Positions 36,199 to 61,375 are shown, counted from the first letter of the stretch. The stretch is 64,000 bases of DNA from Anaerolineae bacterium (GCA_040772005.1 JAXGYZ010000003.1:130131-194130); one strand, 5' to 3'. The notes: generated by a model not told the origin, from the letters alone. Numbers and translations: made by a program.

Positions 36199-36233
36199 AA
36201 TGGGTGACGACTGACCAGGAATACCGACGTAGT

Positions 36234-37411: not shown

Positions 37412-37417
37412 TCCCGT

Positions 37418-38633: not shown

Positions 38634-38969
38634 TCACCCTGCGACAAAGTCCTGGCGCATGGGCGTGAAGGCGTCCAGCAGCACCGTCGGTGCATAGGTC
38701 TTGATGTAGTGCTTGACGTCGGACGGCACGTAGTAGCTGCCGCCCTTGTGTAGGCGCACGGGTTCGTGCCCGGCCATGCAGAAGTCGATCTCGCCCTCGA
38801 CCACATAGCCGACCTGCTCGTGCGGATGGCTGTGCTCCCAGGAGGCCTTGCCCGCCTCAAACCTGAACTCGACCAGCATCAACCCCGCGCCGTAGCTCAG
38901 CACGCGGCGTTGGGCGCCATCCGGGGTGGTGACGGCGGGCTCATGCTCGGCATCGGCGATCAGTTTCAT
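38634..38969 (-). CDS. Small cupin protein, KdgF-like (pectin-degradation accessory cupin)
   Basis: 111 aa after trimming ORF 38634..40097 to ATG 38967-38969 (RBS GAGGGAG). Cupin motifs G(x)5HxH...E and G...H (WEHSHPHEQVGYVVEGE...PSDVKH). Immediately upstream of ogl, as in kdgF-ogl pairs. Confidence 0.6.
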   Translation of the reverse strand: MKLIADAEHEPAVTTPDGAQRRVLSYGAGLMLVEFRFEAGKASWEHSHPHEQVGYVVEGEIDFCMAGHEPVRLHKGGSYYVPSDVKHYIKTYAPTVLLDAFTPMRQDFVAG

Positions 38970-38991
38970 GTGTGGACTCCCTCGTGCTGTT

Positions 38992-39018
38992 GGTGTATAA
39001 TGTGCGTCATCATACACC
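38992..39018. promoter_or_regulatory. Palindrome GGTGTAT-N13-ATACACC overlapping a TATAAT hexamer in the divergent kdgF-ogl / hybrid-kinase promoter region
   Basis: GGTGTATAATGTGCGTCATCATACACC. Candidate operator/-10 region. No experimental support. Confidence 0.3.
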
Positions 39019-39047
39019 TGGAAGTCTGGCGGAGACAAACGCCGGTC

Positions 39048-44623: not shown

Positions 44624-46690
44624 ATGAAACAGCGAATGATCACACGACGTGAGTTCCTGCGGCTGTCTGCGATGGGCGCCGTAGGAGCAGCGGCGGCGGC
44701 CTGCGGCGGACAGCAGACGCCGGCCCCCGCGGCCGAACCGACGGCTGCACCCGCAGCCGAACCGACCGCCGCACCTGCCGCGGAGCCGACGGCCGTCCCC
44801 GAGGCCGTCAAGGCCACTGAAGCGCCCGTCGCGGCCGCGGGCAAGTACCAGGAAGCGCCCATGCTGGCCGAACTGGTCCAGGCGGGCTCGCTCCCGCCGG
44901 TCGATGAGCGGCTGCCCATCAACCCCGCCATCATGGAGAGCTACGAGGGCATCGGTAACTACGGCGGCAACTGGCGCCGCGGCTTCAAGGGCGTGTCCGA
45001 CCGCTGGGGGCCGACCAAGCTGGTGGACCGCAACTGGGCCTGGTTCGACAAGGATCTCAACCTCCAGCCGCGCCTGATGGAGTCCTGGCAGGTCTCCGAC
45101 GATGGCCGCGAGTGGACCATCAAGCTGCGCGAGGGCACCAAGTGGTCCGACGGCACCGAGTTCACTACGGACGACTTCGCGTTCTGGTACGAACACGAAC
45201 TGCAGAACAAGAAGGTCAACGCCAGCCTGCCCACCGTGTGGCGCTCGGATGCCGAGACGCCGGTCGAGTTCACTGCGGTCGACAAGTACACGGCCAAGTT
45301 CGCCTTCACGAAGCCCAAGCCGATGCTGATCTACTACAATACGCGCGGCGGCATGGGCGGGCCGATGACCCCCAGCCACTACATGAGGAAGTTCCACGAG
45401 GACACCACCGACGACAAGGCGGCCATGGAAGCTGAGATCAAGGAGCGCGGCTACGACAGTTGGGAGCGCTACTACATCGACTACAAGTCGTGGTGGTACA
45501 TGGATCCCAACAAGCCGGTCCTGAGCCCCTGGCTGGCAAAGGGTGAGCTCTCCACCGAGCTCTTCATCATGGAGCGCAACCCCTACTTCTTCGCCGTGGA
45601 CCCGGAGGGCAAACAATTGCCCTATATCGACACCGTCACGCATCGCCTGTTCGAGTCGGATGAGGTGCTCAACCTGTGGCTGACCAACGGCGAGATCGAC
45701 ATGCAGGCCCGGCACCTGAGCCTCGCCAACCTGGCCCTCTATAAGAGCGGCGAGGAGAAGGGCGATTACGCGACGATTCTGGCCATCCATGCGAGCCACA
45801 TCGCCATGCAGATTAACCATAGCTGCAAGAATCCGCAGCTCTACGAGCTGTTCAACGATCTCAAGGTGCGGCAGGCCATGAACGCGGCGATCAACCGTGA
45901 AGAGGTCAACGAGCTCATCTTCAACGGCATGCTCAAGCCGCGGCAATACAGCCCGCTGCCTATGTCGCCGCAGTACTACGAGAAGGCCGAGAAGGCCTGG
46001 ATCGAGTATGACCCCGACCTGGCGAACCAGTTGATGGACGAGGCCGGCTACACCGAGAAAGATGCGCAGGGCTTCCGCCTGTTCAAGGACGGCAGCGGCC
46101 CGATCACCTTCATCATCGAAGGCACCGATCAGACCGGCACGCCCACCGAGGATGCGGTCCTGCTCGTGAGCAGCTACCTGGAGAAGATCGGCATCAAGGC
46201 CACCTACAAGTACTCGGAGCGCGCGCTCTACACCGAGCACTACGAGGCCAACGAGATCGAGGCGGCCTGGTGGGGCGGCGACCGCACGGTGCTGCCGCTC
46301 GTGCCGGAGGCCATCATCTTCCGCGGCGTCCAGCCGGACCGGCCGTGGTGCCCGGGCTGGGGCTTCTTCTACACCGACCCGACCAACCCCGCCGCGGTCG
46401 AGCCGCCGGCCGACCACTGGATCCGGGACATCTGGAAGATCTGGGACGAGGAGATCGTCGTCGAGGTCGATCCTGAAAAGCAGACCGCGGCCTTCAAGAA
46501 GATCCTGGACATCTGGGCCGAGCAGCTGCCCATGATCGGCGTCCTGGGCGAGCAGCCGACACCGACCATCGTCAAGAACGGCTTCAAGGGCTACCCGCCC
46601 GGTATGCCGAACGACGACACCACCGGCGACGAGCAGTTCTGCCAGAGCGAGACGTACTACTGGGACGATCCGACGAAGCATACGATGTAG
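44624..46690 (+). CDS. ABC transporter substrate-binding protein, family 5 (Opp/Dpp-type), Tat signal
   Basis: Twin-arginine leader (TRREFLRLSAMGAVGAAAAACGG), Ala/Pro/Thr linker, and 688-aa SBP_bac_5 architecture. RBS AAGGAGG. Confidence 0.85.
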   Translation: MKQRMITRREFLRLSAMGAVGAAAAACGGQQTPAPAAEPTAAPAAEPTAAPAAEPTAVPEAVKATEAPVAAAGKYQEAPMLAELVQAGSLPPVDERLPINPAIMESYEGIGNYGGNWRRGFKGVSDRWGPTKLVDRNWAWFDKDLNLQPRLMESWQVSDDGREWTIKLREGTKWSDGTEFTTDDFAFWYEHELQNKKVNASLPTVWRSDAETPVEFTAVDKYTAKFAFTKPKPMLIYYNTRGGMGGPMTPSHYMRKFHEDTTDDKAAMEAEIKERGYDSWERYYIDYKSWWYMDPNKPVLSPWLAKGELSTELFIMERNPYFFAVDPEGKQLPYIDTVTHRLFESDEVLNLWLTNGEIDMQARHLSLANLALYKSGEEKGDYATILAIHASHIAMQINHSCKNPQLYELFNDLKVRQAMNAAINREEVNELIFNGMLKPRQYSPLPMSPQYYEKAEKAWIEYDPDLANQLMDEAGYTEKDAQGFRLFKDGSGPITFIIEGTDQTGTPTEDAVLLVSSYLEKIGIKATYKYSERALYTEHYEANEIEAAWWGGDRTVLPLVPEAIIFRGVQPDRPWCPGWGFFYTDPTNPAAVEPPADHWIRDIWKIWDEEIVVEVDPEKQTAAFKKILDIWAEQLPMIGVLGEQPTPTIVKNGFKGYPPGMPNDDTTGDEQFCQSETYYWDDPTKHTM

Positions 46691-46694
46691 AACC

Positions 46695-46811
46695 GATTGA
46701 AGATTGCAGATTGAAGATTGAAGATTGGCCAGAGGTGGTGGATTGAGGATTCGTGTAATCTTCAAGCCGGGAGAAGTGTAGCTTCGCACATCTTCAATTT
46801 TCAATCTGCAA
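46695..46811. repeat. Heptamer tandem repeat (GATTGAA/GAAGATT x4-5) with inverted copies downstream. Intercistronic stem-loop element between the SBP and permease genes
   Basis: Direct units GATTGAAGATTGCAGATTGAAGATTGAAGATTGG at 46695-46728. Inverted units AATCTTCAAG at 46757-46766 and CATCTTCAATTTTCAATCTGCAA at 46789-46811. Confidence 0.6.
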
Positions 46812-46826: not shown

Positions 46827-47816
46827 ATGTTTGCCTATATCGTGCGTCGGGTGCTCATCATGATTCCGACGCTGTTTCTGATCTCGATCATCTCCTTTGT
46901 CGCCATCCAGCTGCCGCCGGGCGACTACCTGACGTCGTATGTCGCCACCCTGCGCACGATGGGCGAGAACATCGACCAGGAGCAGCTGGATTCGATGCGG
47001 GAGCGGTACGGCCTGGGCCAGCCCGTGTATGTGCAGTACTTCAAATGGATCGGCGGCATCCTCCTGCGCGGGGATTGGGGCCAATCGTTCGAGTGGCAGA
47101 AGCCCGTCAAGGAGTTGATCGGGGAACGCCTGCTGCTAACGGTGATCCTGTCGTTTGTATCACTGCTGGTCGGGTGGTTCATCGCGATCCCGATCGGCGT
47201 CTATTCCGCGACTCACCAGTATTCGGTCCTTGATTACATCTTGTCTGTCATTAGTTTCATAGGGGTCGGCGTGCCCGGCTTTCTCCTCGCGCTGATCGTG
47301 ATGTACTTCGCGCAGACCCAGCTCCAGATGAATGTGGGCGGGCTGTTTTCGCAGGAGTACATCAATGCGCCCTGGAGCCTCGGGCGGGTGCTGGACATGC
47401 TGAAGCACCTGTGGATTCCGGTGGTGATTTTGGCCGTCGAGGGGACCGCCGCCGGCATCCGCACCACGCGCGCCAACCTGCTCGACGAGCTGAACAAGCC
47501 CTACGTCGAGCTGGCGCGGGCCAAGGGCATGAACGAGCTGAAGCTCATCTGGAAGTATCCCGTGCGGGTCGCGCTGAATCCGTTCTTCAGCACCGTCGGC
47601 TGGTCGCTGGCGAACCTCATTTCGGGGGCTACGCTGATTTCGGTGGTGCTGAGCCTCCAGACGACCGGCCCGATGCAACTGCGGGCGCTGACCTCGCAGG
47701 ATATGTACCTCGCCGGCAGCTTCCTGCTGCTGCTCAGTGCCCTGACCGTCATCGGCACGCTGATATCGGACATCCTGCTCGCGTGGGTTGATCCGCGCAT
47801 CCGACTGGAGCGATAA
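46827..47816 (+). CDS. Opp/Dpp-family ABC transporter permease (OppB/DppB-like)
   Basis: 329 aa, six TM helices, and the conserved binding-protein-dependent permease EAA-like loop (…ELARAKGMNELKLIWKY…). Confidence 0.85.
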   Translation: MFAYIVRRVLIMIPTLFLISIISFVAIQLPPGDYLTSYVATLRTMGENIDQEQLDSMRERYGLGQPVYVQYFKWIGGILLRGDWGQSFEWQKPVKELIGERLLLTVILSFVSLLVGWFIAIPIGVYSATHQYSVLDYILSVISFIGVGVPGFLLALIVMYFAQTQLQMNVGGLFSQEYINAPWSLGRVLDMLKHLWIPVVILAVEGTAAGIRTTRANLLDELNKPYVELARAKGMNELKLIWKYPVRVALNPFFSTVGWSLANLISGATLISVVLSLQTTGPMQLRALTSQDMYLAGSFLLLLSALTVIGTLISDILLAWVDPRIRLER

Positions 47817-47817
47817 C

Positions 47818-48999
47818 ATGACCGTCTCTGCACCGATGGACCGGCCCCTGGAGAGCCCGGGCCCGACCGAAGGCCCGGCCTCCGAAGACGAGATCGCCCC
47901 CGGCGGGGAAAGCGTCTATGTCGCACCCCCGTGGAAGCTGATGTGGTGGCGTTTCCGCAAACACAAGCTGGCGATGGTCAGCGCGGTCATCCTGATCCTG
48001 TTTTACTTCAGCGCGGCCTTCTCCGAGTTCGTCGCACCCTACATTCCGGAGCAGCCCTTCATTCGCTATAAGTTCGCCCCGCCGACCCGCATCCATTTCA
48101 TCGATGCAGAGGGACGGCCCCGGGCTCCGTTCATCTACCAGACCGTGCGCGGCGTCGATCCGGTCACGGCGCAGCCCACCTATACCGAGGATACGACCAT
48201 CCGCTATCCGATCCGGTTCTTCGTGCAAGGCGAGCCATACGAGTGGCTCGGTCTGATTCCATCGAGCCTCCACCTGTTCGGCGTGCCGGATGCCGGGGAA
48301 AACCAGGGCGTCTTTCTGTTCGGTGCGGATCGGCTGGGCCGCGATATGTTCTCGCGCATCGTTTTCGGCGGACGGCTCTCGCTGTCGCTGGGCCTGGTCG
48401 GCGTCTTTCTCAGCCTGATCCTGGGCGTCGTGCTGGGCGGCGTGTCGGGCTACTTCGGCGGGTGGGTCGACACGCTGGTGCAGCGCGTCATCGAGTTCAT
48501 CCGCACTATCCCGACCATTCCGTTGTGGATGACGCTGAGCGCGGCCATGCCGGCCAACTGGCCGGTGACGCGGGTCTATTTCGGGATCACCATCATCCTG
48601 TCGCTGGTCGGCTGGACGTTCATGGCGCGCGTCGTGCGCGGGCGCTTCCTGGCGATGCGCGAGGAAGACTTCGTGCTGGCGGCCCGGCTGAACGGCGCGC
48701 GCGAGATGCGCGTCATCCTGCGCCACATGGTGCCGTCGTTCCTCAGCTACATCATTGCGTCGCTCACGCTGTCGATTCCCGGCATGATCCTGGGCGAGAC
48801 GGGCCTGAGCTTTCTCGGCCTGGGGCTGCGGCCGCCGGCCATCAGTTGGGGCGTGCTGCTGCAGGAGGCGATGAACCTGCGCTCGCTCGTGCTGGCGCCC
48901 TGGGTGCTGGCGCCCGGCCTGGCCGTTGTGATCTCCGTGCTGGCGTTCAACTTCGTCGGCGACGGCCTGCGCGATGCCGCCGATCCGTATTCTCGTTAG
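47818..48999 (+). CDS. Opp/Dpp-family ABC transporter permease (OppC/DppC-like)
   Basis: Start at ATG 47818, 1 nt after the oppB-like stop. Long N-terminal region typical of OppC, and permease signature (…VLAARLNGAREMRVILRHM…). Confidence 0.85.
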   Translation: MTVSAPMDRPLESPGPTEGPASEDEIAPGGESVYVAPPWKLMWWRFRKHKLAMVSAVILILFYFSAAFSEFVAPYIPEQPFIRYKFAPPTRIHFIDAEGRPRAPFIYQTVRGVDPVTAQPTYTEDTTIRYPIRFFVQGEPYEWLGLIPSSLHLFGVPDAGENQGVFLFGADRLGRDMFSRIVFGGRLSLSLGLVGVFLSLILGVVLGGVSGYFGGWVDTLVQRVIEFIRTIPTIPLWMTLSAAMPANWPVTRVYFGITIILSLVGWTFMARVVRGRFLAMREEDFVLAARLNGAREMRVILRHMVPSFLSYIIASLTLSIPGMILGETGLSFLGLGLRPPAISWGVLLQEAMNLRSLVLAPWVLAPGLAVVISVLAFNFVGDGLRDAADPYSR

Positions 49000-49089: not shown

Positions 49090-50130
49090 ATGAAGCAGGA
49101 CCAGCTGCTCGTCGAAGTCAAGGACCTGAAGACTTACTTCTTCCTGGACGAGGGCACCGTGCGCGCGCTGGACGGCGTGGATTTCAACATCTACCGCGGG
49201 CAGACCATCGGCGTGGTGGGCGAGAGCGGCTGCGGCAAGAGCGTGACCGCGCGCTCCATCCTGCGGATTGTGCCGCGGCCCGGCCGCATCGTGAGCGGCG
49301 AGATCAACTTCTACCGCCGGCCTGAGGACAGCAGCGGGCAGATCGAGGTCCTGAAGCTGCACGAACTGGACCCGCTCGGCCAGACCATGCGCAGTATCCG
49401 CGGGGCCGAGATTGCGCTCGTGCCCCAGGAGCCGATGGCCTCGCTGAGCCCGGTCTACACCATCGGCAACCAGATCTCCGAGGCCATCATGCTGCACCAG
49501 GGGGTGAACCGGGACGTCGCGCGGCAGAAGACCATCGAGATGCTGGAGCTGGCCGGCTTTCCCAAGCCCCGCGAGCGCATCGACTCGTACCCGCACCAGC
49601 TCTCCGGCGGGCTGCGCCAGCGCGCGGTCATCGCCATGGGCCTCTCCTGCCATCCCAGCCTGCTCATCGCGGACGAGCCGACGACCGCGCTGGACGTGAC
49701 GACGGAGGCGCAGATCCTCCGCCTGATGCGCAATTTGCAAGGTGAACTCGGTATGGCTATCATGTTCATCACGCACAACCTGGGTGTCGTCGCGCAGATG
49801 ACCGAGGACGTCATCGTGATGTACATGGGCAAGGTGGTCGAATCTGCCAGCGTGGATGCCATCTTCCACAACGCAAAGCACCCGTACACCCAGGCGCTCC
49901 TGCGCTCCATCCCGCGGCTGGGCCAGAAGACGCAAGGCCGCCGTGTGCTGGAGTCGATTCGCGGGACCGTCCCGGACCCCTACACCCGGCCGCAGGGGTG
50001 TGCCTTCCACCCGCGCTGCTCTATGCGCATCCCGGGTGTCTGTGATCGGGATGTGCCGCCGTGGGTCGAGGTCGAGCCGGGGCACTTTGCGCGGTGTGTG
50101 CTCTATGGGAATCCTATGAAGACGGCATAG
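49090..50130 (+). CDS. Opp/Dpp-family ABC transporter ATP-binding protein (OppD/DppD-like)
   Basis: Walker A GESGCGKSVT, signature LSGGLRQRAVIAMGL, Walker B LLIADEPTTALD, and C-terminal Cys-containing extension. Confidence 0.85.
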   Translation: MKQDQLLVEVKDLKTYFFLDEGTVRALDGVDFNIYRGQTIGVVGESGCGKSVTARSILRIVPRPGRIVSGEINFYRRPEDSSGQIEVLKLHELDPLGQTMRSIRGAEIALVPQEPMASLSPVYTIGNQISEAIMLHQGVNRDVARQKTIEMLELAGFPKPRERIDSYPHQLSGGLRQRAVIAMGLSCHPSLLIADEPTTALDVTTEAQILRLMRNLQGELGMAIMFITHNLGVVAQMTEDVIVMYMGKVVESASVDAIFHNAKHPYTQALLRSIPRLGQKTQGRRVLESIRGTVPDPYTRPQGCAFHPRCSMRIPGVCDRDVPPWVEVEPGHFARCVLYGNPMKTA

Positions 50131-50150: not shown

Positions 50151-51983
50151 ATGAAGATAGTCTTATTGTTTCCGCCTTACTGGACGCCGGCCATGCCCCA
50201 CCTGGCACTGCCGGCGCTTTCGTTTTACCTCCGGTCGCACGGGCACGACGTCACGCAGCGCGACCTGAACCTCGAAGTGTTCGAGACCATGCTGACGCGC
50301 GGCTACCTGCAGCAGAGCGTAGCGCGGCTTAAGCTGGGCCGCGCCCCAGCGCGGCTGAAGCCGGGGCGCAACCCGGCGCGGCAGGCCGTCGCGCCGCCGC
50401 GTGAGCGGGTGCGCTGGGCGCTCCAGCAGGGCCCGGAGCTGGCCGATCGGGTGGAGCGCGCCGTCGCGATCATGCGCAGCCCGGAGTTCCTCGACGGCGA
50501 GGCGGGCCTGCAGGCGTACCTGACCGTCGTGCAGAGCCTGGAACTCGCCTCGCTGCCTTTCTATCCGGCGAGCCTCGATCTGCTGGGCTTCCGCCAGGCC
50601 GCGGCGGCGGACAACAGCCGCGACCTGCTCCAGGCCGTGCGCGACGAGCAACACAACCCGTTCCTCGACATCTTCCGCCGCGGCATCATCCGGGATCTTG
50701 TCGCGCTGCAGCCGGGGCTGGTCGGCATCTCCATTCCGACCGAAGGGCAGATGCTCGCCGGCATGACGCTGGCCCACCTCATCAAGCAGGCCAAGCTGCC
50801 CTGTCACATCACGGTCGGCGGGCCGCACATCACCATGCTGCGCGAGCAGCTCCCCAAGGCGCCCGCGGTCTTCACGCTCATCGACAGCGCGGTGGCGTTC
50901 GAGGGGGAAGAGCCGCTGCTGCGGCTGGCCGAGGCGCTGGAGGGTGACCGTGACCTAACCCACGTCCCCAACCTGACCTGGCGCGCCGGCTCAACGATTC
51001 GCGTGAATATTGCGGATGCATCGCCAACACACGCTCCGAGGACGATCAATCTTCAATCTTCAATCTTCAATCTTCAATCGTCCCCTGCCGTGCCGGATTT
51101 CGACGGTCTCCCGCTGGGCCGCTACCTGGCACCGTATCCCGTCCTGCCCCTGCTGACCGCGCACGGCTGCTATCACGGCGACTGCGCGTTCTGCAACGTG
51201 GGCTACGGCCGTCCGGGACACTACCGGCCCATCCGCTCAGCGGAGGTCGTCGAGCAGATGCTCACGCTGCGTCGCAAGTACGGCGTCAAGCACATCTTCT
51301 TTGCGGATGAGGCCATGACCCCGCGCAACATGCGCGAGATGTCCGCGCTGCTGTCCGCGCAGGCGGCCGAAGGGAACTCGTTCCACTGGTGCGGCTGCAT
51401 GCGCTTCGAGAAGACGTTGAGCCGGGAGCTGCTGGAGAGCATGTCCGCGGCGGGCTGCCGGATGATCATGTTCGGGCTGGAGACCGCGTCCGAGCGCATG
51501 ATCGTGCACATGGATAAGGGCGTCGAGCGCGAGCACATGAGCCGCATTCTGCACGAGAGCACTGCCGCGGGCATCTGGAACCATACCTTCTTCTTCTTCG
51601 GCTTCCCGACCGAGACGATGGCGGACGCGCAGGACACGGTCAACTTCGTCTACGCGCACGGCGACGTCATCCACTCGGCCTCGCCGGGCGAGTTCGTGCT
51701 CGAACGCTACTCGCCCGTCCACCTCGACCCGCAGAAGTTCGGCGTGCGGCGCGTCAAGCCCGCGGCCGACCTTGCCATCTACTTCGACTACGAGCTGGAA
51801 TCGGGGCTGGACGAGCAGACCGCGCGCACCATCACCGAGCGGCTGCTGGACGTGCTGCCGCGCAAGCGGTACGGGCAGTATTATGCGCAGGACGCGTACC
51901 GGCTGGTGTATGCCGGGTATCTGCGCGAGCAGGGCCGGCCGCTGCCGGGATGGCTGGTGAACGAAACTGCGATTACAGATTGA
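50151..51983 (+). CDS. B12 (cobalamin)-binding radical SAM protein
   Basis: N-terminal B12-binding Rossmann-like domain (MKIVLLFPPYW...), then a radical SAM core with CxxxCxxC (CYHGDCAFC). 610 aa. Contains an in-frame nucleotide heptamer repeat in the interdomain linker. Confidence 0.8.
   Translation: MKIVLLFPPYWTPAMPHLALPALSFYLRSHGHDVTQRDLNLEVFETMLTRGYLQQSVARLKLGRAPARLKPGRNPARQAVAPPRERVRWALQQGPELADRVERAVAIMRSPEFLDGEAGLQAYLTVVQSLELASLPFYPASLDLLGFRQAAAADNSRDLLQAVRDEQHNPFLDIFRRGIIRDLVALQPGLVGISIPTEGQMLAGMTLAHLIKQAKLPCHITVGGPHITMLREQLPKAPAVFTLIDSAVAFEGEEPLLRLAEALEGDRDLTHVPNLTWRAGSTIRVNIADASPTHAPRTINLQSSIFNLQSSPAVPDFDGLPLGRYLAPYPVLPLLTAHGCYHGDCAFCNVGYGRPGHYRPIRSAEVVEQMLTLRRKYGVKHIFFADEAMTPRNMREMSALLSAQAAEGNSFHWCGCMRFEKTLSRELLESMSAAGCRMIMFGLETASERMIVHMDKGVEREHMSRILHESTAAGIWNHTFFFFGFPTETMADAQDTVNFVYAHGDVIHSASPGEFVLERYSPVHLDPQKFGVRRVKPAADLAIYFDYELESGLDEQTARTITERLLDVLPRKRYGQYYAQDAYRLVYAGYLREQGRPLPGWLVNETAITD
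51045..51079 (+). repeat. In-frame heptamer tandem repeat (CAATCTT x4.5) inside the radical SAM CDS, encoding TINLQSSIFNLQSS
   Basis: Same heptamer as the intergenic repeats at 46695-46728 and 51971-52003. Located between the B12-binding and radical SAM domains. Confidence 0.7.
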
Positions 51984-52003
51984 AGATTGAAGATTGAAGA
52001 TTT
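51971..52003. repeat. Heptamer tandem repeat (GATTGAA x3-4) overlapping the radical SAM stop codon
   Basis: GATTACAGATTGAAGATTGAAGATTGAAGATTT. The TGA stop lies within the first unit. Confidence 0.6.
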
Positions 52004-52031
52004 CGACTCAAGGCTTCCCTGAGGGAGGGTC

Positions 52032-54605
52032 ATGAACATCGCGTACCTCGACTATCCGCTCGCGGGCGGGTACATCCACAACTGGCTGGTGGCCGGGCCG
52101 GCGGCGACGGTGGTGCCGGACCTCGGCCGCTTCACCGGCGCAGACTACAAGCTCCAGATTGCCCGGCACTACCACGAGCCGGCTTCCGGCGTCACCGAGC
52201 CGCCCGCGGAGACGCAGCCATTCGCCGCAGGCGAGGCCACACTGAAGTGGAACTACGTGCGCTGCCGGGACGACCACTACGTCGACCTGTCCGTGTTCCA
52301 CCACGAGACGACCTACCTGGCCGCGTGGGCCTATGCGGAGGTCGTCAGCGCGGCGGCGCAGGGCGAAGCCCAGCTTCGCACGGTGACGTGCACCCTCACG
52401 ACGAACGGCCCGGCCGACGTGTGGCTGAATGGTGCGCACGTCCACCGGCAGGAGCACTTCTACCACCAGTTGCCGAAGCGCGTGACCTTCGAGCTGACCT
52501 TGCAGGCGGGAGCGAACACGCTCCTGGTGCGTATGGAGCAGGTCGCGGCACGCGAGTGCCCCTATGCGATGGCGCTGCAACTCGGGACGGGCGAAGGGCT
52601 GAGCGTGCGGCTGCCGACCGCGATTGCGCCCGCCGAGCGCCGGGCGCGGTTCGAGCGCGCCTTCAATGCCGCGCATCTGCGCCAGGATGTGTTCAAGGCC
52701 GATGAGCCGGTGGCCTTCTACTGGCCGGATGGCTTTGAGGACAGGCTCAAGCTGACCGTGCGCGTGCAGACGCCCGGCCGCGAGATTTTCACCGAGGGGC
52801 ACAAGACCGCGGGCCCCGGCGTGCGGGCGGAGATGGGCCCGGCCTACCGCTTCCCGGACGGCGCGTACGACCTGCTGCTGATGCCGACCCCGCGCGAGTA
52901 TTACGTCGGTGAGATGAAGGTCTCGCGCGGCCTGCGCTGCTGGACGACGCGCGGCCGCTTCTCCGAGGAGCCGTACGGCACGCTGCCGGAGCGCAGCCGC
53001 GAGGCGCTGGTGGATGCGGCGCAGCGCGACGTGAACGTCTTCTCCGAGATCGCGAAGATGGCCCTGGGCATGTGGAGCCGCGTCAGGCTGCCCGCTATCC
53101 AGGACACCATCGCACGCATCAACCGCCGTGGCGACTGCAGCGACTTCTACCTCGTCGGGCTGCTGGGCATGGCCTACCGCTATGCCGACAATCCTGAGTT
53201 TCCCACCGAGCTGCGCCAGCCGCTGCACGACTGCATCGTCAACTTCAAGTACTGGCACGACGAGCCGGGCAGCGATGCGATGTGCTACACGACCGAGAAC
53301 CACAGCATCCTGTTCCATACGTGCGAAGTGCTCGCGGGGCAGCTCTATCCCGACGAGGTCTTCACGAACAACGGCGAGACGGGCCGCCAGCACCGCGCGC
53401 GGGGCGAGGCGCGCGCGCTGGCCTGGCTGCAGGGCCGCGCGGCGCACGGCTTCGTGGAGTGGGACTCGAACTGCTACTTCGAAGAGGACACCCTGGCCCT
53501 GACGCACCTGCTGAGCCTGGCCGAGGACGACAACCTGGCCGAGATGGCGACCGTGGTGCTCGACAAGATGCTCTTCACGATGGCGGTCAACTCGTTCCGC
53601 GGCGTCTTCGGATCCACTCACGGCCGCACCTACACCCCGCACATCAAGAGCGCGTACAACGAAGCCACGTCGGGCATGAGCCGGCTGCTCTGGGGCATGG
53701 GCGTGTTCAACAGCCACATCCTCGCGACGGTCAGCCTCGCCTGCTCGGAGTACACGCTGTCGCCCCTGCTCACGCAGATTGCGACGGACCGGCCCGAGGA
53801 ACTGTGGAGCCGCGAGCGGCACACCGGCGACCCGGCCGACTGGCGCAACTCCGGCTCGCACGCGGCCGAGGTCAACAAGGTCACGTACAGGACGCCCGAC
53901 GCCATGCTCTGCTCCGCGCAGGACTGGCACGCGGGCGAGCCGGGCTACCAGCAGCACATCTGGCAGGCGACGCTGGGGCCGGAGGCCGTGGTGTTCGTCA
54001 CGCATCCCACATGCGCCAGCGAGGACGGCTCGCACCGACCGAACTTCTGGCACGGCAACGCCACGCTGCCGCGCGTCGCGCAGTGGAAGGACGTGCTGGT
54101 AGCCGTGCACCGGCTGCCCGACGATGACTGGATGGGCTTCACCCACGCCTTCTTCCCGGCCCACGCGTTTGACGAGTACCTCGTGACCCCGCGCTGGGCC
54201 TTTGCGCGGCGGGGCGACGGCTACATCGCACTGGCTGCTGCCGGGGGGCTGGAATGGATGACGGACGGCGACAACGCGTACCGCGAGCTGCGCTCGCACG
54301 CCGCACACAACGTCTGGCTCTGTCACCTGGGCCGCCGAAGCCTGGACGGCAGCTTCGAGGAGTTCCAGCAGAAGAGCCAGGCGCTGCCGGTCGAGTTCGG
54401 TGACCTGAGCGTGCGGTTGCGCAGCCTGCGGGGCGACGAGCTGGCCTTCGGCTGGGAGGGCCCGCTGCTGCTCAACGGCGTAGAGCAGCCCATCACCGGC
54501 TTCGGGCACTACGAGAGCCCGTATTGCACGATGGAGAGCGGCGCGGACCACATGGACATCCAGTACGGAGAGACCATCATGCGCCTGCAGTTCGGGGGAG
54601 AATGA
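52032..54605 (+). CDS. Large (857 aa) cytoplasmic protein of unknown function. Possibly a heparinase II/III-like (alpha/alpha-toroid plus beta-sandwich) polysaccharide lyase/hydrolase superfamily member
   Basis: Strong RBS GGGAGGG. No signal peptide. The central region is predicted helical and rich in conserved W/Y/H/N (…YWHDEPGSDAMCYTTENHSILFHTCE…). The family assignment is tentative and made from composition/architecture only. Confidence 0.4.
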   Translation: MNIAYLDYPLAGGYIHNWLVAGPAATVVPDLGRFTGADYKLQIARHYHEPASGVTEPPAETQPFAAGEATLKWNYVRCRDDHYVDLSVFHHETTYLAAWAYAEVVSAAAQGEAQLRTVTCTLTTNGPADVWLNGAHVHRQEHFYHQLPKRVTFELTLQAGANTLLVRMEQVAARECPYAMALQLGTGEGLSVRLPTAIAPAERRARFERAFNAAHLRQDVFKADEPVAFYWPDGFEDRLKLTVRVQTPGREIFTEGHKTAGPGVRAEMGPAYRFPDGAYDLLLMPTPREYYVGEMKVSRGLRCWTTRGRFSEEPYGTLPERSREALVDAAQRDVNVFSEIAKMALGMWSRVRLPAIQDTIARINRRGDCSDFYLVGLLGMAYRYADNPEFPTELRQPLHDCIVNFKYWHDEPGSDAMCYTTENHSILFHTCEVLAGQLYPDEVFTNNGETGRQHRARGEARALAWLQGRAAHGFVEWDSNCYFEEDTLALTHLLSLAEDDNLAEMATVVLDKMLFTMAVNSFRGVFGSTHGRTYTPHIKSAYNEATSGMSRLLWGMGVFNSHILATVSLACSEYTLSPLLTQIATDRPEELWSRERHTGDPADWRNSGSHAAEVNKVTYRTPDAMLCSAQDWHAGEPGYQQHIWQATLGPEAVVFVTHPTCASEDGSHRPNFWHGNATLPRVAQWKDVLVAVHRLPDDDWMGFTHAFFPAHAFDEYLVTPRWAFARRGDGYIALAAAGGLEWMTDGDNAYRELRSHAAHNVWLCHLGRRSLDGSFEEFQQKSQALPVEFGDLSVRLRSLRGDELAFGWEGPLLLNGVEQPITGFGHYESPYCTMESGADHMDIQYGETIMRLQFGGE

Positions 54606-54608
54606 CGG

Positions 54609-55730
54609 ATGCCCATCATCGAGCCTGAGTTCATGGCGCTGACCGCGGGCCTCGACGTCGAGGCGTGGTGGGCCGAGAACGAGGCCTGCCAGCGGCCCGG
54701 TACCGACAAGCCGCGCTGCCCGGCCTCCTTCTCGCCCGACGACCACTGGATCTTCGAGTTCATGGCCGTGCCGTCGACGCTGCGCTACTATCACGACACG
54801 GATTACCGCAACGCGCTGCACGCGGAGGTTAACGCGCTCACCCGCGCGCACGTGGGCCGCGCATTCTTCGATGAGGACACCTGGCGCACGACGCCGAAAC
54901 GTATCGAGAACCTGTTCGGCTGCGAGTTCGGCTATCATGAGGGCAGCACGCCCTGGCTCACGCCGGTCACGGACGACCCGGACGAGTTCGCGCGTGTCCT
55001 CGACCGCGCAGAGGCGACCGACCTGCGGACGTGGAGCCTGCCCGAGGACTACCTGGCGGAATGGGATGAGCGCAAGGCCGCGGGCAAGCTGCTGCCCAAG
55101 CTCGGCACGGGGAGCCGCGGGCCGGCGACCATCATGACCTCGGTGCTTAAGCCGGAGACGGTGTTCTACTGGCTCTACGACCACCCGGACCTGATGCGGC
55201 GGTTCCGCGACGTGCTGGCCGTCAAGATGGTGGCGTTCAATCGCATCCTGCGCGAGTTCAGCGGGAACGACGAGCCCGGTTGGTGGATCACGGACGACAA
55301 CTGCGCACTGTTCAATCGGCGGCTGTACCGGGAGTACTGCTACCCGGTGCTGGAGCAGGTGCTGGCCGCGCTTGCGCCTGGCGATGCGCGACGCTACCAG
55401 CACTCGGACAGCGCGATGGGCCACCTGCTGGAATTGCAGTATGCGCTCGGCATCCGCGACGTCAACTACGGGCCGACGGTCGACGCCGCGCTCATCCGCG
55501 AGCGGATGCCCGACGCGATCATCAACGGGCAGATGCCGCCCATGCTGCTGCGCAACGGCAGCCCCGAGGCAATCCGGGCGCGCGTCGTGGAGGACTTCGC
55601 CAAGGCGGGCGGCACGGGGCTGCTCAACGTGACGACGGCCGGCTCGCTGGCCGCGGGCACGGGTCTCGGCCGGATGCGCTGGTTCATGCAGACGGTGCAG
55701 GAGTGCTGCCGGTACGACGTGACAGGGTGA
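54609..55730 (+). CDS. Uroporphyrinogen decarboxylase (URO-D)/MtaA-like family protein
   Basis: 373 aa. TIM-barrel-like URO-D family resemblance. Paralogous in its C-terminal half to the protein at 61879-63018 (…GDITLAEMVERVEP / …DVNYGPTVDAALIRERMP…). Start is 3 nt after the previous stop. Confidence 0.45.
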   Translation: MPIIEPEFMALTAGLDVEAWWAENEACQRPGTDKPRCPASFSPDDHWIFEFMAVPSTLRYYHDTDYRNALHAEVNALTRAHVGRAFFDEDTWRTTPKRIENLFGCEFGYHEGSTPWLTPVTDDPDEFARVLDRAEATDLRTWSLPEDYLAEWDERKAAGKLLPKLGTGSRGPATIMTSVLKPETVFYWLYDHPDLMRRFRDVLAVKMVAFNRILREFSGNDEPGWWITDDNCALFNRRLYREYCYPVLEQVLAALAPGDARRYQHSDSAMGHLLELQYALGIRDVNYGPTVDAALIRERMPDAIINGQMPPMLLRNGSPEAIRARVVEDFAKAGGTGLLNVTTAGSLAAGTGLGRMRWFMQTVQECCRYDVTG

Positions 55731-55962: not shown

Positions 55963-57351
55963 ATGGGCAAGGCAGTGAAGATCGGCATCATCGGCGCAGG
56001 CAGCGCGCAGTTCTCGCTCGGCCTGGTGAAGGACATCTGCCTGACGGAGAGCCTGCGGGGCAGCCACATCACTTTCATGGACATCGACCAGGACCGGCTG
56101 GACATCATCCACAAGCTGGGCACGAAGTATGCAGGCCAGCTCGGCGCGGACCTGACCTTCGAGGCGACAATGGACCGTGCGGCTGCACTGCAGGACGCGG
56201 ACTTCGTAGTCAACACCGCGTATGTGCTGGGCCACATCGTCGAGGCCCAGATGCGCAACCTGGCCGGCGAGAAGTACGGCTACTACCACTCCGGCGGCAG
56301 CTTCGGCTCGTACCACCAGCTCCAACTGATGCTCGACGTGGCGCGCGATATGGAGCGCATCTGCCCCGACGCCTGGCTGATCCAGTCGGGCAACCCGGTG
56401 TTCGACGGCTGCACCCTCATGACCCGCGAGACCGGCATCAAGGTCTGTGGCTTGTGTCACGGCCATTACGGGTACGAGGAAATCGCCCGCACCATCGGCA
56501 TCGATCCGGCGAAGGTCACGTGGCAGGCGCCCGGCGTCAACCACAACATCTGGCTGACCCACTTTATCTACGACGGTCAGGACGCCTACCCGCTGATCGA
56601 CGAGTGGATTGCGACAAAGGGCGAGGAATACTGGCGCACGCACGTCGCGCAGCGCACCCACGACGCGCAGATGTCGCGCGGCGCGGTCCACCAGTACCAC
56701 ATGTTCGGGCTGTTCCCCATCGGCGACACCGTGCGCCACCGTTCCTGGTGGTGGTATCACACCGACATCGACACCAAGAAACGCTGGTTCGGGGAGCCGT
56801 GGGGCGGGCCGGACACGCACCTGGCGCGGCCCTACTTCGTCAAGCAGCTCGAGGAGCGTATCAAGGAGTACCACCGCTGGGCAGTCGACCCCCAGGCGGA
56901 CCTGACGCAGCTCGTCGGCACGCAGCGGACCCACGAGCAGCAGGTGCCGATCATGGACGGGCTGACCAACAACAACGCGGGCTATTTCCAGGTCAACGTG
57001 CCCAACAACGGCGCGCTGCCGGGCATCCCGGACAACGTCGTGGTCGAGGTGCCCGCGATCGTGGACCAGCGCGGCATCCAGCCGCTGCGGATGAAGCCGC
57101 TGCCGCCGAAGATCATGCTTGAATGCATCCTGCCCGACTGGCTGGATATGGAGCGCGAGCTGCTCGCCTTCAAGACCGGCGACCGATCCATGCAGTTGTT
57201 CGACGTGTTGGGCAACCACCAGACGCGCAACTACGATGCGGCCCAGGCGCTGCTGGAAGAGCTGATCCACCTGGCGGAGGTCGCGGAGGTCGAGGACTGG
57301 GAGCAGATGGCGCGGGTGCAGGATCGTTACCGCTATCCCATGCCGCTGTGA
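55963..57351 (+). CDS. Glycoside hydrolase family 4 (NAD+/Mn2+-dependent). Likely alpha-galacturonidase (LplD-like) or alpha-glucosidase
   Basis: N-terminal Rossmann motif KIGIIGAGSAQF, conserved GH4 Cys/His region (CHGHYG), and length 462 aa. RBS GGGAGG. Confidence 0.8.
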   Translation: MGKAVKIGIIGAGSAQFSLGLVKDICLTESLRGSHITFMDIDQDRLDIIHKLGTKYAGQLGADLTFEATMDRAAALQDADFVVNTAYVLGHIVEAQMRNLAGEKYGYYHSGGSFGSYHQLQLMLDVARDMERICPDAWLIQSGNPVFDGCTLMTRETGIKVCGLCHGHYGYEEIARTIGIDPAKVTWQAPGVNHNIWLTHFIYDGQDAYPLIDEWIATKGEEYWRTHVAQRTHDAQMSRGAVHQYHMFGLFPIGDTVRHRSWWWYHTDIDTKKRWFGEPWGGPDTHLARPYFVKQLEERIKEYHRWAVDPQADLTQLVGTQRTHEQQVPIMDGLTNNNAGYFQVNVPNNGALPGIPDNVVVEVPAIVDQRGIQPLRMKPLPPKIMLECILPDWLDMERELLAFKTGDRSMQLFDVLGNHQTRNYDAAQALLEELIHLAEVAEVEDWEQMARVQDRYRYPMPL

Positions 57352-57362
57352 GATGGGCCATC

Positions 57363-57491
57363 CAGGCATCCTGAGCGGCGGCCTGGCAGGGCTGAAGTCG
57401 AAGGATGTGTGCATCCGCTGTGTCTGGCGCAGGCATCCTGAGCGGAGCGACCGGCCAAGCATAGCTTGGCTGGGGAGCGAAGTCGAAGGAT
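57363..57491. repeat. Imperfect tandem duplication (two units each beginning CAGGCATCCTGAGCGG and ending GAAGTCGAAGGAT) upstream of the HAD hydrolase gene
   Basis: Unit 1 is 57363-57406. Unit 2 is 57430-57491 and contains an internal GCCAAGC-ATA-GCTTGGC palindrome. Confidence 0.45.
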
Positions 57492-57510
57492 ACGGCCCGT
57501 GAGAGGTGCG

Positions 57511-58038
57511 ATGCGATTACGCGCGCTGCTGTTCGACCTCGGTGACACGATCATGGTCGAGGAAACCGAGGTCAAGGATCCGGACGAAACCACGCTGCGG
57601 GCCGAACTGGTGCCCGGCATGGCGGAGGTCCTGCACGCGCTCCGAGCTGACGGTCACCGGCTCGCGCTGGTGGCCGACAGCCGGCCGGAGACCCCGCCGA
57701 ACGTGCTCCGCCAGCACGGGCTGTGCGCCCTGTTCGAGTACCTGGCTATCTCGGAAATCATCGGCGCGACCAAGCCGGACCCGCGCATCTTCCGCGCGGC
57801 GCTCGACGCGCTGGGCATCCCGAAGGCGGACTACGGCCGGGTGGTCATGGTGGGCAACAACCTGGAGCGCGACGTCGCCGGGGCCAACCGGCTCGGCCTG
57901 ATCCCGGTGTTCTATCATCTCAACGAACGGCGGCGCACGCAGCCGCTCACGCCCGACGAGATGCCGCAGTACACGGTCACGACTCCAGGGGAACTGTACG
58001 ACCTGGTGCGGCGGCTGGAGAAGGAGCCTGCAACATGA
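57511..58038 (+). CDS. HAD-superfamily hydrolase (subfamily IA-like phosphatase)
   Basis: Motif I DLGDT at the N-terminus (ALLFDLGDTIM), and motifs III/IV (…VMVGNNLERDV…). 175 aa after trimming to ATG 57511. Confidence 0.7.
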   Translation: MRLRALLFDLGDTIMVEETEVKDPDETTLRAELVPGMAEVLHALRADGHRLALVADSRPETPPNVLRQHGLCALFEYLAISEIIGATKPDPRIFRAALDALGIPKADYGRVVMVGNNLERDVAGANRLGLIPVFYHLNERRRTQPLTPDEMPQYTVTTPGELYDLVRRLEKEPAT

Positions 58039-58381: not shown

Positions 58382-59497
58382 GTGCGACCTTTAGCAGACG
58401 ATGTGCCCGCCGATAGCGCGCTCTGGTCGGTGCGCATGGCCGATGCCACGCTGGCGCGCTACCCTGTCTCCCGCATGCGCTGGCACTACGAGGACGGTTT
58501 CCTCATGCACGCGGTCGCGCAGGTGGCGCAGCGGACGGGGCAGCCGTGCTATGGGCAGGCGGTCAGGGAGTACGTGGACCGTTTCGTGCAAGGCGACGGC
58601 AGCATCGCGACTTACTGGCTGGCAGACTACAACCTCGACCAGATTGCGCCCGGCCGGCTGCTCTTCCCGCTGCACGAGGCCGGCGGCGACGCGCGTTTCG
58701 GGCAGGCGATTGCGCTCCTGCGCGAGCAGCTTGCGCGGCAGCCTCGCACGCGCGCGGGCGGCTTCTGGCACAAGCTCATCTATCCGTACCAGATGTGGCT
58801 CGACGGCATCTACATGGCCGGGCCGTTCTATGCGCAGTATGCGGCCGCCTTCGGAGACGTTGCGGCCTTCGATGACGCGGTCCACCAGATCGTGACGCTG
58901 GAGCAGCATGCGCGCGATCCCGAGACGGGTCTGCTGTATCACGCGTGGGATGAGAGCTGCCAGCAGCGTTGGGCCGCGCCGGGGACGGGCTGTTCGCCGC
59001 ACTTCTGGGGCCGCGCGATCGGCTGGTTCGGGATGGGCATCGTGGAGGTGCTGGACGTACTGCCGCCTGACCACCCGCAACGGCCCGTGCTGATCGGCAT
59101 CCTCCAGCGCGCACTCGCCGCGGTGTACGCGGTGCGGGACCCCGACTGCGGCTTGTGGCGGCAGGTGCTGGACCAGGGCGGCCGGGCCGGCAATTACCTG
59201 GAGGCCTCGGCCGCGTGCATGTACATCTACACGATGGCGAAGGGCGTCCGCCAGGGCTACCTGCCTGCCGACTGGCTGGCCGTGGCCCGCGTGAGCTTCG
59301 ACCAGGTGCTCGCGCACTTCATCCATGTGGACCCGGCCGGCCACGTCAGCCTGCACTGGACGTGCGGCGCGGCGGGGCTGGGCGGCACGCCATATCGCGA
59401 TGGCAGCTACGAGTACTACGTGACCGAACGAGTGGTGACGAACGATCCCAAGGGCATCGCGGCCTTCATCCTGGCCGCGCTGGAACTGGGACGCTGA
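58382..59497 (+). CDS. Glycoside hydrolase family 105/88 unsaturated uronyl hydrolase (unsaturated rhamnogalacturonyl/galacturonyl hydrolase, YteR/YesR-like)
   Basis: 371 aa. The alpha6/alpha6 barrel carries conserved blocks (WHYEDGF, QMWLDGIYM, HAWDES, the WGRAIGW motif). GTG start with RBS GGAGGTGG. Confidence 0.8.
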   Translation: MRPLADDVPADSALWSVRMADATLARYPVSRMRWHYEDGFLMHAVAQVAQRTGQPCYGQAVREYVDRFVQGDGSIATYWLADYNLDQIAPGRLLFPLHEAGGDARFGQAIALLREQLARQPRTRAGGFWHKLIYPYQMWLDGIYMAGPFYAQYAAAFGDVAAFDDAVHQIVTLEQHARDPETGLLYHAWDESCQQRWAAPGTGCSPHFWGRAIGWFGMGIVEVLDVLPPDHPQRPVLIGILQRALAAVYAVRDPDCGLWRQVLDQGGRAGNYLEASAACMYIYTMAKGVRQGYLPADWLAVARVSFDQVLAHFIHVDPAGHVSLHWTCGAAGLGGTPYRDGSYEYYVTERVVTNDPKGIAAFILAALELGR

Positions 59498-59518: not shown

Positions 59519-60333
59519 TGACCTATTTTACAGCCGTGCCCGCGCATGAGGGCATCAACCATCTGCCGGCGAACCCGTGCAAGCTGCTGGACTTCCAGTT
59601 GCTGATCCTGCCGGCCGGGCAGAGCTACAGCGCCGCAACCGGCGACCGCGAGGTGCTGGCGGTCATTCTCGGCGGCAAGGGCACGTTCCGAGTCGGGGGC
59701 CAGGAGTTTGCCAATGTCGGCGGCCGGCCCAACGTCTTTGCGGGCAAGCCGCACGCGGTCTACATGCCGTGCGGCGCGGACTTCACCGTCACTGCGCAGG
59801 GCCGGCTGGAGGTGGGGCTTTGCAGTGCGCCCAGCGAGCTGGCGACTGCACCCTATGTCATCAGCCCGGAGCAGGTCACGAGCGGGATGTGGGGCGCGGC
59901 AAACTTCTCGCGCAATTTCCATCAGATTCTCACGCTGGCGGGCCAGCCCAACCTTCCAGCGCGGCGGCTCATCGTGGGCGAGACCTACACCCCGTCGGGC
60001 AACTGGAGCACCTATCCGCCGCACAAGCACGAGGTCGATGACCTGCCGCGCGAGGCGTATCACGAGGAGATGTACTTCTTCAAGGTGACGCCGGCGGACG
60101 GGTTCGGCATGGTGCGCTACTACAACGACGAGGTCGACACGGGCTACATCGTCAAGGACAACACCATCCTGATGGCCCCGAACGGCTATCACACGACCAA
60201 CAGCGCGCCCGGCTACCAGAGCTACTTCCTCTGGATGCTGGCGGGCAACCAGCGCGTGCAGGCGACGGTGGACGATCCTGCGCTGGGCTGGGTCTCGCGC
60301 ACAGTGCCGATGCTGAAGGCGTTGGGGCACTAA
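59519..60333 (+). CDS. KduI/IolB-family cupin isomerase (5-dehydro-4-deoxy-D-glucuronate isomerase-like)
   Basis: 271 aa. A bicupin with the family motif NWS(T/S)YPPHKH(E/D)VDD and a second HxH-type site. Its position beside kduD favours a KduI-like role, although the motif is closest to IolB. Confidence 0.7.
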
Positions 60334-60610: not shown

Positions 60611-61375
60611 ATGCAAGATCTCTTTCGGCTCGATGGCCGCGTCGCGCTGGTGACGGGCGCATCGCAGGGGTTGGGGCAGGGGATGGCGCTGGCGCTCGCC
60701 AGGGCGGGGGCGGACATCGCCGGGCTGGACCGCTGCACCAGCGACGCGACGGCAGAACAGGTGCAGGCAGTGGGCCGCCGCTACATGCAGGTCTGCTGCG
60801 ACCTGCTGGACGCGTCCGTCGCGGACCTGCAGGCCGTCGTCGGCCAGGTCGTGGCCGAGCTGGGGCGGCTGGATATCCTGGTCAATAACGCGGGCATCAT
60901 CCGCCGCGGCCCCGCGCTGGATTTCAGCGAGGCCGACTGGGACGATGTGCTGCAAATCAACCTGAAGGCGGTCTTTTTCCTCGCGCAGGCCGCCGCGCGT
61001 GCGATGGTGGCCCAGGGCTCGGGCGGGAAGATCATCAACATTGCGTCGATGCTCTCGTTCCAGGGCGGCATCAACGTCGTGTCCTACACCGCGGCCAAGA
61101 GCGGCGTGGCGGGGGTGACGCACGCGCTCGCCAACGAATGGGCGAAGCACGGCATCAACGTCAACGCGATCGCGCCGGGCTACATGGCGACGGACAACAC
61201 CGCGCCGCTGCGCGCCGACCCGGTGCGCACTGCGGCCATCCTGGAGCGCATCCCGCTGGGGCGCTGGGGCACCCCGGCTGACCTGGACGGCGTGGTGGTG
61301 TTCCTGGCGTCGGCCGCGTCGGACTATATGTGCGGTGCGATCGTACCTGTGGACGGCGGCTGGCTGGCGCGGTAG
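60611..61375 (+). CDS. kduD: 2-dehydro-3-deoxy-D-gluconate 5-dehydrogenase (KduD, SDR family)
   Basis: 254 aa. TGASQGLGQGMALALA and the catalytic YxxxK (YTAAKSGVAG) closely parallel E. coli KduD (VTGCDTGLGQGMALGLA). Confidence 0.8.
   Translation: MQDLFRLDGRVALVTGASQGLGQGMALALARAGADIAGLDRCTSDATAEQVQAVGRRYMQVCCDLLDASVADLQAVVGQVVAELGRLDILVNNAGIIRRGPALDFSEADWDDVLQINLKAVFFLAQAAARAMVAQGSGGKIINIASMLSFQGGINVVSYTAAKSGVAGVTHALANEWAKHGINVNAIAPGYMATDNTAPLRADPVRTAAILERIPLGRWGTPADLDGVVVFLASAASDYMCGAIVPVDGGWLAR

Follow-up and report, generated by a model that had tools for sequence, protein, structure and literature searches.

A 64,000-nucleotide (nt) stretch of DNA from an Anaerolineae bacterium (GCA_040772005.1, JAXGYZ010000003.1:130131-194130; hereafter the window, with coordinates counted from its first letter) encodes an Opp-type ATP-binding cassette (ABC) importer followed on the same strand by a radical S-adenosylmethionine (SAM) enzyme with a B12-binding domain (rSAM; 610 amino acids, 50151-51983, plus strand) and a cytoplasmic protein of 857 amino acids that we call X857 (52032-54605, plus strand). 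These elements form a genuine, conserved and co-oriented association, to which the URO-D-superfamily protein encoded just downstream (URO-D 1; 373 amino acids, 54609-55730, plus strand) does not belong. With moderate confidence, we read the region as an operon for the uptake and cytoplasmic breakdown of acidic, uronate-containing, pectin-like oligosaccharides that is conserved in Chloroflexota and includes two uncharacterised conserved enzymes. A preliminary description had presented these genes as a cobalamin-themed module inside a pectin locus. The pairing of rSAM with X857 proved to be conserved within a locus for uronate oligosaccharides that also encodes PL22-like, GH4, GH88/105, KduI and KduD proteins (PL, polysaccharide lyase; GH, glycoside hydrolase), and the URO-D proteins were not part of the conserved pair.

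X857 belongs to a large family. A word-indexed search returned 730 proteins, the family occurs in more than 593 genomic stretches of species-representative genomes (the best 80 all from Chloroflexota), and an exhaustive profile search retrieved 3153 clusters at 50% identity. Homologues of the window genes were mapped onto 83 Chloroflexota loci seeded with X857, with flanks of up to 10 kb. We found Opp ATPases in 59 of these loci, permeases in 54-57 (OppC-like in 54, OppB-like in 57), the binding protein in 40, rSAM in 29 and the GH4 glycosidase in 23; KduD was present in 4, GH88/105 in 2, and KduI and URO-D 1 in 1 each. When all open reading frames of 84 loci were clustered, the window included and two locus pairs being the same contig fetched twice, the rSAM family appeared in 34, a small cupin in 25 and PL22 in 16. 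The recurrent gene order is binding protein, two permeases, one or more ATPases, rSAM, in some loci a membrane protein of about 150 amino acids, X857 (at times duplicated), the small cupin and GH4, with a PL22-like gene close by. This core synteny recurs through Chloroflexota, with proteins that are 50-70% identical. The membrane protein, which has about four predicted transmembrane segments and no family match, lies between rSAM and X857 in L002, L007, L008, L011, L026, L027, L031 and L070 and is not encoded in the window.

The reciprocal test gave a similar picture. Among 80 metagenome-contig loci seeded with rSAM, for which flanks of up to 8 kb were available and complete in 16, X857 was found in 28 of the 53 with at least 1.5 kb downstream and in 14 of the 16 with complete 8-kb flanks. 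In rSAM loci that lack X857, rSAM is still placed among Opp genes, followed either by GH89 and an esterase resembling carbohydrate esterase family 15 (CE15), or by a sulfatase and a GFO/IDH oxidoreductase. Taken together, the X857- and rSAM-seeded neighbourhoods indicate that the adjacency of the two genes is beyond chance, and the chance juxtaposition that the preliminary description had named as a way to refute its proposal was not borne out for this pair. In another X857 clade, a second family of B12-binding radical SAM enzymes is encoded behind the Opp ATPases in 10 loci (L043, L048, L051, L062, L066, L071, L073, L076-L078). Members of this second family have an N-terminal SEC-C motif and a TIGR04190-like match of 219 bits, and have only the B12 domain in common with the window rSAM; their genes are often duplicated and are accompanied by genes for a secreted GH5 and a DUF362 protein.

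The window rSAM matches Pfam Radical_SAM (E 2.5e-14, 54.2 bits) and, at 31.8 bits, falls slightly below the 32.1-bit cut-off for Pfam B12-binding, a domain that is recorded in nearly all of its homologues. The three-cysteine cluster motif is present as C340-x4-C345-x2-C348 and is invariant in the 28 sequences of the family alignment, and identity is at least 56% among the 120 best matches. With both a radical SAM core and an N-terminal B12-binding domain evident from sequence, the protein is predicted to be a class B radical SAM enzyme. Its arrangement, a B12-binding Rossmann domain ahead of a radical SAM barrel, is that of OxsB, TsrM, TokK, PhpK and PoyC-like methylases of peptides made by ribosomes and modified after translation (RiPPs), but the window family carries CX4CX2C where class B enzymes have CX3CX2C, and it is encoded in a catabolic sugar-uptake operon, whereas characterised class B members are biosynthetic. 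To our knowledge, this holds for all characterised cobalamin-dependent radical SAM enzymes.

Its best NCBIfam matches are ApyD, RiPP C-methyltransferases and PhpK, at about 105-110 bits and far under the cut-offs, and the protein falls in none of the characterised equivalogs (ApyD, PhpK, BchE, HpnJ, BzaD and others), for which the best score was 110 bits against a cut-off of 750. A profile of the family searched against the PDB retrieved OxsB (E 8e-14, aligned over residues 169-496), AprD4 (7e-6), TsrM (4e-4) and TokK (3e-3). OxsB and AprD4 act on sugar rings and transfer no methyl group, and TsrM and TokK are methylases. Because OxsB and AprD4 ranked first, and because methylation would consume SAM stoichiometrically in a catabolic setting, we mildly prefer a non-methylating radical reaction; in our judgement, the most likely role of the enzyme is the radical conversion of a sugar substrate.

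The RiPP-type matches also bear on the idea that rSAM could be a maturase whose target is X857, the binding protein or some other product of the operon, in the way that sulfatase-maturating enzymes modify theirs. Peptide-modifying class B enzymes (ApyD and the rSAM_ocin_1 family) are its nearest NCBIfam models, the gene tightly adjoins those of the transporter and X857, and Cys, Ser and His occur in loops of X857 that are both invariant and poorly modelled. Anaerobic sulfatase-maturating enzymes are likewise an instance of a radical SAM gene conserved in a polysaccharide catabolic locus, in their case for glycosaminoglycans. Those enzymes have a SPASM domain and no B12 domain, and a sulfatase as their target. 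For the window rSAM a maturase role is disfavoured: rSAM is missing from about half of the X857 loci and X857 from some rSAM loci, and rSAM-linked and rSAM-free X857 proteins differ at four positions only (P58A, T529S, F724C, G816E), with no plausible modification target lost. We therefore consider maturation improbable and retain the conversion of a sugar as the preferred role.

Two features of the rSAM gene itself were noted. In several long-read assemblies (L001/L010, L003, L012) gene calling splits it in two, with the B12 and radical SAM parts separate, which could reflect a frameshift error or a true split. The window also contains a heptamer tandem repeat, (GATTGAA)n, at 46695-46726 (plus strand), 46789-46806 (minus), 51048-51079 (minus) and 51971-52002 (plus), where none would be expected by chance. 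The copy at 51048-51079 is internal to the rSAM gene and in frame with it, and specifies INLQSSIFNLQSS within a variable linker; the copy at 51971-52002, oppositely oriented, runs across the stop codon of rSAM, so that the two flank the radical SAM half of the gene. Between the genes for the binding protein and the permease, the copies at 46695-46726 and 46789-46806 are arranged as an inverted pair.

X857 had no match in Pfam, NCBIfam, a phmmer search of the PDB or a profile search of the PDB, and its translation shows no visible signal peptide, so it is expected to act on imported oligosaccharides. A confident AlphaFold2 model (mean predicted local distance difference test score, pLDDT, 85.9; predicted template modelling score, pTM, 0.86) divides the protein into beta domains (residues 1-310), an alpha-helical toroid (318-585) and a beta sandwich (590-857). 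The toroid followed by a beta sandwich that is typical of polysaccharide lyases and uronyl epimerases is thus present in the predicted structure. In a Foldseek search of the PDB, its GH2-like N-terminal domains alone gave matches. For the truncated model the best fold matches, all weak, were dermatan-sulfate epimerase, PL35, alginate lyases, GH105 and heparinase II, with PL35 chondroitinase and GAGase II also among them; the longest structural alignments covered 240-381 residues of toroid plus beta sandwich and were to lyases and dermatan-sulfate epimerase. The likeness of X857 to heparinase II/III-type and alginate-type lyases (PL12, PL15, PL17, PL21, PL35) and to dermatan-sulfate epimerase 1 is accordingly one of fold, without a link in sequence.

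Relatives of X857 at 33-39% identity keep E422, N423, H424, E476, S479, Y482, H530, R532, Y534, D631, Q640, H642 and H705, of which E422, N423, H424, Y482, H530, H642 and H705 are invariant or nearly so in the sequence alignment. An Asn/His, a Tyr about 55 residues further on and a His in the sandwich domain make up the catalytic pattern of heparinase II/III, PL15/PL17 and dermatan-sulfate epimerase, a correspondence that serves as a lead rather than a test. A natural gene fusion provides a further clue. P0477, a protein of 990 amino acids in the representative library, joins an X857-like core that lacks the N-terminal beta domains to a GH88 domain; identity of this core to X857 of the window is 36-41% (E 3e-54 and 3e-51), the other half is an unsaturated glucuronyl hydrolase of GH88 (192 bits in Pfam), and composition suggests a low-GC source organism outside Chloroflexota.

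A uronate-acting, lyase-like function is favoured because of this fusion, the PL22, GH88/105, KduI and KduD neighbours, and the conserved polar residues, and X857 probably represents an undescribed family of uronate lyases or epimerases. Alternatively, X857 could be an enzyme with an alpha/alpha toroid that catalyses no elimination, such as a glycoside hydrolase, and neither lyase nor epimerase, a change that would leave the remainder of the model as it stands. Its N-terminal domains resemble the sugar-binding domains of GH2, and it has no sequence link to any PL family, but the longest alignments, across toroid and sandwich, are to lyases and dermatan-sulfate epimerase, and both the GH88 fusion and the company of PL22, GH88/105, KduI and KduD fit the production of unsaturated uronates. 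We judge a hydrolase unlikely, though less so than the other alternatives weighed here.

The importer comprises an OppF-like ABC ATPase (43514-44560), a large family-5 solute-binding protein of 688 amino acids (44624-46690; Pfam SBP_bac_5, 197.8 bits), OppB-like (46827-47816) and OppC-like (47788-48999) permeases and an OppD-like ATPase (49090-50130), all on the plus strand. The OppF-like gene is the ATPase whose homologues adjoin X857 in the 59 loci counted above, and its counterparts in L001-L003 carry the Pfam domains ABC_tran and oligo_HPY; the OppD-like gene was recognised from its translation and from homologue mapping onto the X857 loci. The downstream genes had been described as co-oriented with a sugar transporter, and while the co-orientation holds, the transporter is of the Opp/Dpp type, with an SBP_bac_5 binding protein, and not CUT1. 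In a PDB sequence search the binding protein matched SPH1118 (7VER) with an E-value of 1.9e-64 and 221.6 bits, query residues 75-641 aligning with residues 3-570 of the chain, and matched 5IPW of T. maritima at 374 bits. The homology to SPH1118 spans the full length, which by sequence places it with the SPH1118-type binding proteins for pectin oligosaccharides. SPH1118 of Sphingomonas sp. A1 is a 69 kDa protein that was annotated as an oligopeptide binder, and it binds pectin, polygalacturonan and unsaturated trigalacturonate but no peptide digests (PMC9314435). Other Opp-family binding proteins in the list of PDB matches bind alpha-galactosides, mannosides and chitin oligosaccharides.

Because the binding protein is homologous to SPH1118, the import of acidic oligosaccharides is supported, though not proven, and the product of 44624-46690 is a probable acidic-oligosaccharide binder. 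A transporter of the peptide/nickel family alongside an rSAM whose nearest family models are RiPP enzymes could instead suggest that peptides or glycopeptides are imported as rSAM substrates, and that the carbohydrate genes share regulation with the importer rather than a substrate. We give this little credence: the binding protein groups with a pectin binder that takes no peptides, other binding proteins of the Opp family bind the sugars just listed, and the recurrent neighbours are carbohydrate-active (GH4, PL22, GH88/105, GH89, sulfatase and GH5).

Under the reading we prefer, acidic-oligosaccharide catabolism, the oligosaccharide would be taken in by the Opp-type ABC importer, whose binding protein is placed in the SPH1118 clade by homology. 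In the cytoplasm, X857 would then act on a uronate residue by abstraction of the C5 proton, followed most likely by beta-elimination or else by epimerisation; its fold (toroid plus beta sandwich with invariant E-N-H, Y and H), the gene fusion and the gene context all point in this direction. Products would be finished by enzymes of known families. These are a GH4 NAD-dependent glycosidase of the AglA/alpha-glucuronidase clade (55963-57351, plus strand; assigned by Pfam, with 376 bits to 1OBB and 266 bits to 1VJT in the PDB), a PL22 oligogalacturonate-lyase-like beta-propeller protein (37418-38608, minus strand), which at 65.9 bits exceeds the Pfam gathering cut-off of 30 for Pectate_lyase22, a GH88/GH105 unsaturated uronyl hydrolase (58382-59497, plus strand; Pfam Glyco_hydro_88, 334.8 bits), KduI, the 5-dehydro-4-deoxy-D-glucuronate isomerase (59521-60333, plus strand; Pfam KduI, 246.5 bits), and a KduD-like short-chain dehydrogenase (60611-61375, plus strand; Pfam adh_short, 195.7 bits). 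Encoded between the transporter and X857, rSAM might convert the imported sugar by a radical route, probably with the help of cobalamin, in a way that is beyond the reach of ordinary hydrolases and lyases. As candidate reactions, this step could take off an O-methyl group or another substituent, deoxygenate or dehydrate the sugar, or rearrange its ring, rather than add a methyl group in a biosynthetic manner. Radical (de)methylation, epimerisation or dehydration of a uronide, the chemistry put forward in the preliminary description, is conceivable.

Considering the homology of the binding protein to SPH1118 and the presence of PL22, GH105, KduI and KduD, the substrate in the window may be pectic. 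The region resembles the TogMNAB/Ogl/KduI/KduD system of Dickeya and the SPH1118 system, in which acidic oligosaccharides likewise enter through an ABC transporter and are met in the cytoplasm by a PL22-type lyase, GH88/105, KduI and KduD; it differs from them in a transporter that is Opp-type throughout and in the embedded B12 rSAM and X857. We know of no described uronate pathway that includes a B12-binding radical SAM enzyme or X857, and no description of the combination of B12-rSAM, X857 and uronate genes was found in the searchable literature, in line with the novelty that had been claimed for it.

Several observations weigh against this reconstruction. An hhalign comparison of X857 with a Hepar_II_III_C protein from L084 gave Probab=0.07 (0.07%), that is, no similarity. 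By clustering, roughly every second X857 locus lacks an rSAM, so the radical step is not required for its own reaction. The best NCBIfam matches of rSAM are RiPP C- and P-methyltransferases, which keeps methyl transfer or a peptide substrate conceivable. The small cupin of related loci was considered as KdgF, an assignment that is unsupported, with no KdgF structure among its PDB matches. Lastly, some related loci encode sulfatases, GH89 or CE15-like esterases, which suggests glycosaminoglycan-like or glucuronoxylan-like rather than pectin substrates there; these loci indicate that the module serves further uronate polymers.

A bolder reading, which we hold only tentatively and think doubtful, is that cobalamin-dependent radical SAM enzymes were recruited at least twice independently to the catabolism of acidic oligosaccharides, where they would perform an unprecedented radical step, such as cleaving off an O-methyl ether without oxygen, or rearranging or deoxygenating the sugar in the manner of OxsB and AprD4, and that X857 founds a new lyase or epimerase family. 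With an rSAM family fixed in an operon for sugar uptake throughout a phylum, B12-radical chemistry would seem to have a new role in carbon turnover. This might account for the way in which anaerobes handle methyl ethers and similar decorations, whose removal in aerobes falls to oxygenases. Chloroflexota are abundant in digesters, sediments and soils, and a function for X857, with its more than 3000 unannotated sequence clusters, would fill a gap in the carbohydrate-enzyme catalogue for this phylum.

The URO-D proteins call for separate treatment, as they had been taken for MtaA-like paralogs and for part of the cobalamin theme. URO-D 1 scores 53.6 bits against Pfam URO-D and URO-D 2 (379 amino acids, 61879-63018, minus strand), which adjoins a CUT1-type sugar permease, scores 41 bits; they align with model positions 80-344 and 145-346, respectively, and leave the N-terminus of the model unmatched. 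The two have no pairwise similarity (BLASTP E 1.3), so that paralogs is too strong a term. An exact-sequence look-up of URO-D 2 returned no record, and a PDB search with it found no relative. Neither protein is a genuine HemE, a check that the preliminary description had proposed: no NCBIfam HemE model matched either of them at E <= 0.1, the sole HemE match of URO-D 1 in the PDB was 1J93 at E 0.32, and a profile built from 25 members of the URO-D 1 family found no HemE, URO-D or MtaA structure in the PDB at a meaningful E-value. The URO-D 1 family is 72-98% identical among its 120 best matches, Candidatus Moduliflexus included, and HSDS, RGPAT and WWITDDN motifs are invariant in it.

The URO-D superfamily includes MtaA, MtbA and CmuA, so one can imagine a corrinoid methyl-transfer chain in which rSAM and an MtaA-like URO-D protein demethylate or methylate pectic sugars, the latter as a methylcobalamin methyltransferase. 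The URO-D 1 gene begins 3 nt past X857, it lies inside the cluster again in L013, L097 and L111-L113, and the CE15-like glucuronoyl esterases that related loci encode may be a sign of glucuronate substrates that are methylated; there are also weak NCBIfam matches to the MtaA/MtbA models. The scores of these matches are 12-26 bits for both proteins, against cut-offs of 235-600. An H-x-C...C zinc site is a feature of the MtaA/MtbA/CmuA family, and neither URO-D protein has the H-x-C motif, the corresponding residues, matched by eye, being HSD (residue 265) and HLD (residue 255). Thus the window proteins match Pfam URO-D as MtaA, MtbA, CmuA and HemE do, but unlike the methyltransferases they fall far under the cut-offs, lack H-x-C and have no corrinoid partner: no corrinoid-protein gene was found between 36 and 64 kb of the window or in six other URO-D 1 loci. 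A published study of MtaA-like 'mlp' clusters deals with clusters that include corrinoid proteins. Nor was a B12 riboswitch found at 36-64 kb, where there were sub-threshold hairpins only.

Gene neighbourhoods also speak against a methyl-transfer chain. URO-D 1 was found in 4 of the 80 rSAM-seeded loci and 1 of the 83 X857-seeded loci; overall it accompanies the rSAM/X857 cluster in about 6 of some 160 loci, and about 95% of the rSAM and X857 loci lack it. Elsewhere (including L084-L086 and L167-L169) the neighbours of its family vary, with Opp or CUT1 sugar transporters, GH2, GH88, Hepar_II_III_C and GH10 in some genomes and wholly unrelated genes in others, and these loci have neither rSAM nor a corrinoid protein. 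We regard the methyl-transfer chain as very unlikely. Where it adjoins X857, here and in L013, L097 and L111-L113, URO-D 1 may have some role in sugar metabolism, but it is a neighbour in this genome and not a conserved component of the pathway, and nothing links it to cobalamin. The proposal of a cobalamin-themed module with URO-D/MtaA-like genes is not supported, with rare co-occurrence, variable neighbourhoods, low scores and the missing H-x-C motif and riboswitch against it, and this negative result clears the annotation of a B12 theme that is attractive but lacks support.

The four open reading frames on which the preliminary description was based (50151-51983, 52032-54605 and 54609-55730 on the plus strand, 61879-63018 on the minus strand) are all present, and translation and Pfam bear out their coordinates. 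GC content at third codon positions is 0.88-0.92 across the four, which supports the rSAM, X857 and URO-D frames as coding. The packing is as tight as had been reported, with gaps of 20, 48 and 3 nt around rSAM, X857 and URO-D 1, followed by 232 nt ahead of the GH4 gene. Carbohydrate and uronate genes are confined to about 37.4-64 kb, and the remainder of the window is unrelated, encoding among other products a Mrp-type antiporter, Amt, GlnA and a protein of 2905 amino acids with glycosyltransferase family 2 (GT2) and GH94 domains. This last protein (12273-20990, minus strand), which also has a glucoamylase-like domain, looks like a cyclic beta-1,2-glucan synthase and is unrelated to the operon.

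Between the GH4 and GH88/105 genes lies a gene for a HAD-family hydrolase (57466-58038, plus strand; Pfam Hydrolase and HAD_2). Immediately upstream of the operon, a hybrid sensor regulator of 1324 amino acids (38766-42740, plus strand; Pfam Peripla_BP_3, HisKA, HATPase_c, Response_reg and HTH_18) carries on a single polypeptide a sensor that resembles periplasmic binding proteins, followed by histidine kinase, receiver and AraC helix-turn-helix domains. It resembles the hybrid two-component regulators of polysaccharide loci in Bacteroidota, and from its position we infer that it is a candidate regulator of the locus. A promoter and terminator scan was uninformative. Two long hairpin-like stretches on the minus strand (36221-36315 and 37286-37417), which match unrelated microRNA models below threshold, probably represent terminators or structured repeats between genes on either side of the PL22-like gene.

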